Positions 31,508-33,637 of a stretch of DNA of 64,000 nt are shown here, in pieces. A program made the position numbers and the translations under genes. Every line of letters begins with the position of its first letter. Positions within the stretch are counted from its first letter, which is position 1. The notes under the pieces are model-generated. The model was not told the DNA's origin, ran no database searches, and worked only from the letters and a program-made list of their open reading frames with translations. Origin of the DNA: Escherichia phage vB_Eco_F27. The stretch lies in the sequence record OP870146.1, one strand, 5' to 3'.

Positions 31508-31816
31508 TCAATTAGAAAATAAATTTATCCAAGATTTTTCTTTAATCAAAAATGGGTCGGAATTAAACGCCATTAAACTTTGAGTGATTAATCCCTTAAA
31601 TGGCCCATCAATAAATTCCATTTTGAAATGTGGAATACTAGTCATCAACCGTGCATTAGGAGCAGTACAAAGAACATGCTGCCCTGCGAACGGACCTTTA
31701 GTTAAACGATATCGTTTAGGTTTAAAATGGTAAATCTCGTAATTTTCTACAAGAGCCCTTTTATTGCATACTGGGCTGTTATAACAATACTCAAAAACTT
31801 CAATAGTGGTCATCAT
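31508..31816 (-). CDS. hypothetical protein (vs.7 position)
   Basis: 102 aa ORF. Confidence 0.45.
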   Translation of the reverse strand: MMTTIEVFEYCYNSPVCNKRALVENYEIYHFKPKRYRLTKGPFAGQHVLCTAPNARLMTSIPHFKMEFIDGPFKGLITQSLMAFNSDPFLIKEKSWINLFSN

Positions 31817-32352
31817 TGCATTCCAATCACAAAAAATTGAGGACGAGCATTACCGCCGATGCAATATTTGCTTTTGCAGCAGTGCTGTACTGTTTTAATG
31901 TGGACATTGTAAATCTTATCCATATCAGGAGCTTTAATAGGCTCGTCAATTATATACAGAATACGAGAAAGCGTTAATCCACGGAATTTAGAACCTTCAT
32001 TGCCAATAAAACTACGAACAGAATCAGTAAATAAACGGAATCGAATATCATCGCTAGAATAACGAGAAAATTCTTTTTTAATGTTGCCAGCAGAAATTTT
32101 AGCATAAGCTGAAGTATTAGAAAGAACAATAACTGTTCCACCATCATATAGCCAATTAACAGCAAAATTAGTTACTGCGGACGATTTACCTGATTGTCTG
32201 CCGCCGTCTAAACGAAGTGTACAGTACTGCTTGAGTACGTCTTCAAATGGTGGGGCATAACCGTTCTTACAAATTTCTTCTACTCTAGCATCAGAATGGT
32301 GTGTAAAAGCATTCATCAGGGATAGATAAGGTCCAGTTAAAAATGTTCTCAT
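31813..32352 (-). CDS. hypothetical protein (vs.8 position)
   Basis: 179 aa ORF. Confidence 0.5.
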   Translation of the reverse strand: MRTFLTGPYLSLMNAFTHHSDARVEEICKNGYAPPFEDVLKQYCTLRLDGGRQSGKSSAVTNFAVNWLYDGGTVIVLSNTSAYAKISAGNIKKEFSRYSSDDIRFRLFTDSVRSFIGNEGSKFRGLTLSRILYIIDEPIKAPDMDKIYNVHIKTVQHCCKSKYCIGGNARPQFFVIGMQ

Positions 32353-32462: not shown

Positions 32463-32861
32463 TTATTTGTAGGTTTTCATCCAATTCTTGAACAAAGCCG
32501 CGACGTCTTTCTCTTTAACGTTCAGTTTAATGTCCAACATTTTACCGCCCGCTGCTCTCGTTTGACGAATCTTAGCAGTACCGGTTTCACCATTCCACTC
32601 AACATAATATTGCCCAGTGTTCATAGCGATACCGTTGCCAAAGTCTTCGTTATTAGAAGTAGTGAATGCCAACTTCATGGTCTTAGAGACACGGGCCGGC
32701 ATGCCTGTCTGAAGGGCATTACGAACGCGAATAACCTGAGGAGTGGCCTGGGTCAGGTTCTCATTCAGTTCTTCGGTGAACTCTTCAGATTCAAACATCG
32801 CCAAAAGTTCTTTAGATGCAGGAATTACATTCTCTGCGATAAATTCTTTATATGTTTTCAT
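32463..32861 (-). CDS. internal protein-like, with capsid targeting sequence
   Basis: 132 aa starting MKTYKEFIAE, the T4 internal-protein capsid targeting sequence; preceded by a GTTTAC...TGGTATAAT promoter. Confidence 0.6.
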   Translation of the reverse strand: MKTYKEFIAENVIPASKELLAMFESEEFTEELNENLTQATPQVIRVRNALQTGMPARVSKTMKLAFTTSNNEDFGNGIAMNTGQYYVEWNGETGTAKIRQTRAAGGKMLDIKLNVKEKDVAALFKNWMKTYK

Positions 32862-32925: not shown

Positions 32926-33186
32926 TTAAGCTTTACCGCCAGAAATAATTCCGAAGTTGTTAAAATCGTATCCAATATCGTCAACATCTACTTTAGGACT
33001 TACTACAACATAAGCAATTTCACTACGTTTTGCATAGGTGTTTATTTCTTTACCATCACCACCTAAGAAAGAATACCCATTACGTTTTAATGAGCCAAAG
33101 TCTTCCGCATCACCAATGAAAGCTTTAACTTTAAATTTAGGACCTTTGGCATCTGCTTCAACGATAAATTCTTGATACATTTTCAT
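32926..33186 (-). CDS. internal protein-like, with capsid targeting sequence
   Basis: 86 aa starting MKMYQEFIVE. Confidence 0.55.
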   Translation of the reverse strand: MKMYQEFIVEADAKGPKFKVKAFIGDAEDFGSLKRNGYSFLGGDGKEINTYAKRSEIAYVVVSPKVDVDDIGYDFNNFGIISGGKA

Positions 33187-33192
33187 TTTTCC

Positions 33193-33306
33193 TTAGTAAA
33201 TTGATTTACCATAGTATTTGTACCAAGTCGGACGTTGAGCAATTTTTTCATCTAAGCGTGCTTGATTTATCGCAATGGACGCTTCGGACGGGTCATAATT
33301 TCCTCC
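33193..33306 (-). pseudogene. denV: denV (endonuclease V) remnant: start codon plus out-of-frame C-terminal fragment
   Basis: Promoter, RBS GGAGGAAA and ATG ACC CGT (MTR) at 33306 are followed by a stop after 9 codons. The adjacent frame encodes ...[31 protein letters not shown], matching the T4 DenV C-terminus as recalled. Confidence 0.65.
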
Positions 33307-33355
33307 AAGTAGTTGATGAATGTATAGTATCAAAACCCTTGGAGGAAGTAAACAA

Positions 33356-33637
33356 CTATTTTTCTGAAGCGCCTGAAATATATTTTTCAAGACGTTGTTT
33401 CATTAAAGAGCCGTTCTTAGCGATTTCTTCCGGTTTATCGCACATACGCAACAAGGCTTCGAGCTTAACGATATCGCTGGTACGTTCAAATTTGCGAGTA
33501 TCTATCTTACTAGCAAGTTCAGAAATACGTGCTAATAGACTTTCGGCTTCAACCAAAGCTGCACCTAGCTTAGTTGCAAATGTGTCAGTAGCTTCGTTAA
33601 GAATAGATTCTGATAAAAATTCACTATATGTTTTCAT
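33356..33637 (-). CDS. internal protein-like, with capsid targeting sequence (ipIII/ipII position)
   Basis: 93 aa from [10 protein letters not shown]; lies directly downstream of e. Confidence 0.6.

Follow-up and report, generated by a model that had tools for sequence, protein, structure and literature searches.

A denV pseudogene, very probably formed by a 310-bp deletion between short direct repeats, in a Mosigvirus-type phage and its relatives in two genera

Introduction

The denV gene of phage T4 lies downstream of the lysozyme gene (e), among genes for internal proteins, and encodes endonuclease V, a pyrimidine-dimer DNA glycosylase/AP lyase. Its catalytic requirements we take to be the amine of the N-terminal Thr2, acting as nucleophile, together with Glu23 (structures 2END and 1VAS). 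The gene is not essential: v mutants of T4 remain viable, and their sensitivity to UV is raised about two-fold, to a level close to that of wild T2 and T6. The natural UV sensitivity of T2, a 'u' phenotype or lack of v function, is reportedly a classical observation. Deletions in the rII region of T4 are said to fall between short direct repeats, partly imperfect, of which one copy is kept.

Here we describe a locus that occupies the same neighborhood as T4 denV and retains both the Met-Thr-Arg start and the last 31 residues of the T4 protein, but differs from it in being naturally inactivated by a 310-bp internal deletion, with residues 4-106 absent. The deletion likewise ends at short, imperfect direct repeats; in contrast to the rII deletions, which are laboratory-selected mutants, this allele is natural and circulates in two phage genera. 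The locus lies in a stretch of 64,000 nucleotides (64 kb) of Escherichia phage vB_Eco_F27 (record OP870146.1), which is termed the window. An earlier note on this DNA had proposed that denV is reduced there to a non-functional remnant, and we examine that proposal by homology searches, by alignment with close relatives and by surveys of public sequence records. What emerges is a real but ordinary pseudogenization of a dispensable accessory repair gene, which nevertheless offers a clean natural case of gene loss at a repeat, one in which a marker base allows cassette exchange across two genera to be traced.

Results and Discussion

Identity of the remnant

The window derives from a Mosigvirus-type T-even phage. 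Over the 24 kb surrounding the site the window shares 96-97 % identity with mar005P1, JK42 and JS09, and across this span it has no exact counterpart among deposited records. Close relatives carry at the same position a 414-nt gene annotated as DenV or endonuclease V. The intact protein of one of them, AlbertHofmann, aligns over residues 1-137 with T4 endonuclease V (PDB 2END; E = 1.8e-82) and contains the Pyr_excise domain (Pfam PF03013) at residues 1-87 (52.5 bits). When the 64-kb window was searched by tblastn with intact DenV sequences of relatives, residues 102-137 were matched at 33303-33196 (E about 4e-18), and a 65-aa ORF matched positions 100-138 of the 139-position endonuclease V profile of PHROGs; a Pfam search of the remnant returned no Pyr_excise match. 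Homology to DenV is confined to residues 102-137, in a frame other than that of the ATG, and of the catalytic domain only Met-Thr-Arg precedes the frameshift. Descent from denV is indicated by the same neighboring genes and by flanks of the deletion that, on either side, match the nucleotide sequence of intact loci at 97-99 % identity. We therefore regard the region, with high confidence, as a denV pseudogene produced by a 310-bp deletion at a repeat. The termini of T4 DenV on which the earlier note relied agree with the sequence in PDB 2END, whose N-terminus reads MTRINLTL.

Organization of the remnant

The whole feature lies on the minus strand and was read in the sequence from 33360 to 33180, where an upstream TAG stop (33358-33356) is followed in turn by a promoter-like element, a Shine-Dalgarno sequence, an ATG and a short stub. 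The promoter-like element of denV (33324-33353) has the form GTTTAC (33353-33348)-N18-TACTAT (33329-33324) and is unchanged with respect to relatives; the same 30 nt are annotated as a 'promoter' feature in the record of phage Lutter, whose denV is intact, and the element was absent from the list returned by a generic sigma-70 scan. The Shine-Dalgarno sequence GGAGG (33302-33306), also the same in intact relatives, ends 5 nt before the ATG (33296-33294). Over the 60 nt 5' of this ATG the nucleotide alignment reveals complete identity to relatives with intact denV, which bears out the proposal that promoter, ribosome-binding site and ATG ACC CGT start had all survived. The T4 denV Shine-Dalgarno sequence GGAG has been described as RegB-resistant (PMC1702504, the RegB paper), a property with no bearing on the deletion.

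The ATG opens a nine-codon stub (33296-33267: ATG ACC CGT CCG AAG CGT CCA TTG CGA TAA), translated as MTRPKRPLR, in which the part derived from DenV is Met-Thr-Arg only. The last 31 DenV codons and their stop (33193-33288; SEASIAINQ...GKSIY*) are out of frame with this ATG: in translation, 33297-33193 reads as the DenV C-terminus, one base out of register with the stub. Both the termination after nine codons and the survival of about 31 terminal codons in a shifted frame had been read correctly from the letters, the latter now by translation, tblastn and PHROGs together. Within the surviving codons, the base at 33266 changes serine to asparagine relative to all intact alleles. The 65-aa ORF, which begins with TTG, is the only entry in the DenV C-terminal frame of the program-made ORF list. 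The remnant is probably still transcribed, and the 9-mer still translated.

A 310-bp deletion between direct repeats

A nucleotide alignment of the window with five deposited short-locus phages and two phages with intact denV contained a single gap, its flanks collinear and nearly identical. In a larger alignment of 18 sequences the gap spanned exactly 310 columns in the window and in 12 other carriers. The 'roughly 300 bp' that had been estimated for an internal deletion removing the catalytic core is in this way given a precise value, and the alignment with intact denV of close relatives places the junction at a 13-nt repeat. The start codon of the intact gene lies within AATTATGACCCGT, and 310 nt farther downstream AATTATGTCCCGT encodes Asn-Tyr-Val-Pro-Ser (codons 103-107). 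A repeat finder applied to the intact AlbertHofmann denV identified this pair as its longest direct repeat (13 nt, 92 % or 12/13 identical, start-to-start spacing 310). Both end-points of the deletion fall on the repeat copies, and one copy is left in the window, at 33300-33288. DenV residues 4-106 are lost, with the whole Pyr_excise domain. The catalytic Glu23 and the DNA-binding arginines of the T4 enzyme presumably fall within the deleted residues. Since 310 = 3 × 103 + 1 is not a multiple of three, the reading frame is shifted.

The comparison shows an ancestor that possessed an intact 137-codon denV with the imperfect repeat pair 310 nt apart, and the loss of the 310 bp between the copies together with one copy. 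From the anatomy of the junction we infer that replication slippage or short-homology recombination between the copies removed them. The unchanged ATG is followed by codons for Thr-Arg and six out-of-frame codons before a stop, and the last 31 codons now lack both a start codon and a ribosome-binding site. Carriers whose loci measure 339 and 340 bp (FL12, Phaginator) were considered as possible cases of frame restoration and rejected as such, the differences in length being due to a T between the genes and to a frameshift within the C-terminal remnant.

T2 is likewise a wild T-even phage lacking functional denV, evidence that the gene can be dispensed with in nature. In 30 kb of its record (AP018813, 50000-80000) no trace of denV was found between e and the genes downstream. 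T2 was accordingly rejected as a carrier of the same deletion, its locus being without any denV sequence: the gene is wholly absent there and internally deleted in the window. Natural loss of denV has in this sense a classical precedent in T2, if through a different event. Many product names in the T2 record look mis-transferred (small early genes bear names such as 'tail sheath monomer' and 'major capsid protein').

Carriers in public records

A 70-nt probe spanning the junction gave an unbroken match in 15 records, which stem from 13 phages. Nine of these are classified as Tequatrovirus (G4498, G8, BF15, 235Ecol030PP, Phaginator, Shinka, FL12, FL23 and FL44) and three as Mosigvirus (JM17, FL18 and JM10); the record of the remaining one, B1.1, contains no taxonomy, and its lysozyme gene is Tequatrovirus-like. 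Their origins include Germany, Poland, Denmark, the USA and elsewhere. About 200 further records matched the probe as two halves or as one half only, the pattern of an intact denV. A search of IMG/VR for the junction yielded one match, probably phage G8 itself, and the junction was not found in JGI metagenome contigs. Literature searches on natural loss of denV, which were swamped by the dengue abbreviation 'DENV', did not find this deletion described.

In the deposited carriers the remnant is unannotated or is called 'endonuclease' or 'hypothetical protein'. The pseudogene is already present in public genomes and is annotated as such in none of the 13 carriers; these errors in public records are flagged here. 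A 46-aa 'endonuclease' CDS is annotated in B1.1 (1328-1468 of locus L003) and in JM17 and FL18 (1299-1439 of L010 and L011). This CDS is an annotation artefact, a TTG ORF that begins in the promoter -10 element and continues in the frame of the DenV C-terminus.

Origin of the allele and its exchange between genera

The base at 33266, immediately after the stop codon of the stub, divides the carriers. It is A in the window, JM17, FL18, B1.1, G4498, G8, BF15, 235Ecol030PP and Phaginator, and G in JM10, FL12 and Shinka as well as in each of six sampled intact alleles. When 150 full-length intact alleles were searched with a probe of intact sequence carrying 33266-A, none matched it perfectly, the best identity being 98.7 % (one mismatch in 77). 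The absence of this base from 150 intact alleles marks it as derived (G-to-A) and specific to deletion carriers, and the window allele is accordingly placed, on this marker, in a deletion lineage of single origin.

The lineage is present in both genera. Over 482 nt of the lysozyme gene the window differs from Mosigvirus at 7-13 positions, versus 80-101 from Tequatrovirus; the adjoining cassette, in which denV stands between two internal-protein (IP) genes, is 97-99 % identical between the genera and differs by only a few bases. Given a lineage that spans both genera and a near-identical cassette, the deletion allele or its cassette has been exchanged by recombination. On this reading the deletion is older than the present phage and has been passed around by homologous recombination within the highly conserved IP-denV-IP cassette. 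A sharp mosaic boundary is visible at about 33652, where e borders on the IP gene (loci L001-L019); such a boundary implies recent exchange of the cassette between Mosigvirus and Tequatrovirus.

Repeat-mediated deletions are expected to recur, and the window deletion could in principle have arisen independently at the same hot-spot, the shared junction reflecting recurrence rather than descent. The Shinka junction keeps the downstream repeat variant ATGTCCCGT, together with the ancestral G at 33266 and a G2133-like background, features that hint at, and are most simply explained by, a second, independent deletion whose crossover point differed, or by a point change. JM10 and FL12 also have the ancestral G, and at 33212 the window has the Mosigvirus-type A, unlike every other carrier. 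Against an independent origin of the window allele stand the derived 33266-A that it shares with eight carriers and with 0/150 intact alleles, the T at 33355 that it shares with 33266-A carriers (B1.1 and G4498, for example, though not Phaginator), and variants at 33407, 33406 and 33404 that are common, among carriers, to the window and B1.1 only. On balance we consider recurrence unlikely for the window and favor common descent.

Within the lineage of common descent the window nevertheless has a haplotype of its own (A at 33212, C at 33239), identical to no deposited carrier; both bases are those of intact Mosigvirus alleles, and JM17 and FL18 differ from the window at one base in the 166-bp segment comprising remnant and promoter. 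Its sequence suggests a unique mosaic, generated by further recombination within the remnant or, less likely, by an independent deletion. The extra T at 33355, between the upstream stop and GTTTAC, is polymorphic among carriers and intact alleles alike: the window, B1.1, G4498, Shinka, G2133 and Lutter have it, and AlbertHofmann, JK42, FL12 and Phaginator do not. It has no obvious effect and is a useful haplotype marker.

Predicted phenotype

Using three DenV sequences as tblastn queries, we found only the remnant in the 64-kb window. The same was true of the complete genome of JM17 (168.6 kb), a carrier that matches most of the window at 96-98.5 % identity. The stipulation that no second denV be present elsewhere thus holds for the window and for this close carrier; judged from these two sources, the phage most likely lacks pyrimidine-dimer excision of its own. 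No DenV activity would be produced, UV photoproducts would then be left to photoreactivation and recombinational repair only, and by analogy we infer a UV sensitivity like that of T4 v-minus or T2. The prediction extends to at least 13 sequenced relatives, which should be roughly as UV-sensitive as T2 or T4 v-minus. Several of these are candidates for phage therapy or biocontrol, and the prediction bears on UV-based handling, environmental persistence and inactivation protocols.

Loss of denV might have been favored rather than neutral: DenV would be a liability in gut and sewage, and the deletion allele would for that reason be spreading there by horizontal transfer between Mosigvirus and Tequatrovirus. 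We hold this to be distinctly improbable. If true, it would suggest that DenV is perhaps sensed or exploited by a host defence, or is costly where UV is lacking; the two repeats would then form a recurrent 'off switch', with independent deletions of the Shinka type as evidence of repeated selection.

Decay or residual function

Carrier-specific changes in the 31 surviving codons (93 nt) comprise S to N, A to D, one synonymous substitution and one frameshift, the last a 1-nt change in the C-terminal remnant of JM10 and FL12. They are consistent with lost constraint, their numbers being too small for statistics.

Very little probability attaches, in our judgment, to a remnant that still functions, whether as a leader peptide (MTRPKRPLR) and promoter that couple expression of the downstream IP genes or as a source of a peptide from the DenV C-terminus, expressed through the 65-aa TTG ORF or by frameshifting. 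Such a role would accord with the perfect conservation of the promoter-like element, Shine-Dalgarno sequence and stub ORF in all carriers, with the early denV promoter, which presumably still transcribes the downstream internal-protein gene, and with the 46-aa CDS called here by RAST annotators. The TTG starts, however, fall within the -10 element of the promoter or within the upstream gene and lack a Shine-Dalgarno sequence, and any product would be without residues 4-106 and the Pfam domain. The C-terminal frame is interrupted in JM10 and FL12 and has non-conservative changes in other carriers; a search of the remnant for unusual RNA structure gave no signal (z = -0.66). The conservation of the 5' part, moreover, is no greater than that of adjoining DNA, and the alleles are very young. 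Decay of a pseudogene remains the reading that we prefer.

The flanking internal-protein cassette

The remnant is bounded by two genes on the same strand. Upstream is a gene for a 93-aa internal head protein (33356-33637; phrog_3499, E = 1.2e-46); downstream is one for an 86-aa internal head protein beginning MKMYQEFIVE (32926-33186; phrog_2667, E = 4e-21), whose Shine-Dalgarno sequence TAAGGA overlaps the old denV stop. PHROGs and the translations agree in assigning both to internal head protein families with the N-terminal motif MK(T/M)Y.EF..E, and the placement of the remnant between genes with capsid-targeting sequences, as first read, is well founded. A 132-aa gene farther downstream (32463-32861, minus strand; MKTYKEFIAE...) has an MKTY.EF..E N-terminus like those of the flanking genes, but its PHROG match (phrog_15461) is of unknown function only; it belongs to the variable part of the cassette, and most relatives lack it or have something else in its place.

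Genes beyond the 86-aa IP gene differ from phage to phage, and the suggestion of gene-cassette turnover stands for the locus as a whole; it does not extend to the lesion in denV, which is an intragenic deletion at a repeat between collinear flanks. Loss of denV as a by-product of exchange of the internal-protein cassette with a differently organized locus, an idea encouraged by the variability downstream of the 86-aa IP gene and by the syntenic T2 locus without denV, is scarcely credible in view of flanks that are collinear and 97-99 % identical to intact loci, break-points placed exactly on two repeat copies within denV, and the lack of foreign sequence at the junction. There is as little to recommend a sequencing or assembly artefact in a phage with intact denV: short repeats can in principle collapse in assembly and only one sequence of this phage is available, but a 13-nt repeat is far too short for read collapse, and the identical junction in 13 phages independently isolated and sequenced, in several laboratories and countries, disposes of the sequencing error that the earlier note had named as an example of what might overturn it.

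The 86-aa IP gene is truncated or split in some relatives, by a 2-nt insertion in JM10 (1451-1630 of locus L015) and by a 1-nt deletion in G2133 (2162-2338 of L019), and two short CDS take its place in Lutter (891-1146 of L024); other genes of the cassette therefore decay too. Farther downstream, a 179-aa ORF (31813-32352, minus strand) contains a Walker-A-like sequence, GGRQSGKS, and matches phrog_1488, a family of unknown function; there is also a weak match to a terminase-ATPase profile. Homologues in relatives carry conflicting labels, among them 'endoribonuclease/RegB', 'DNA packaging protein' and hypothetical.
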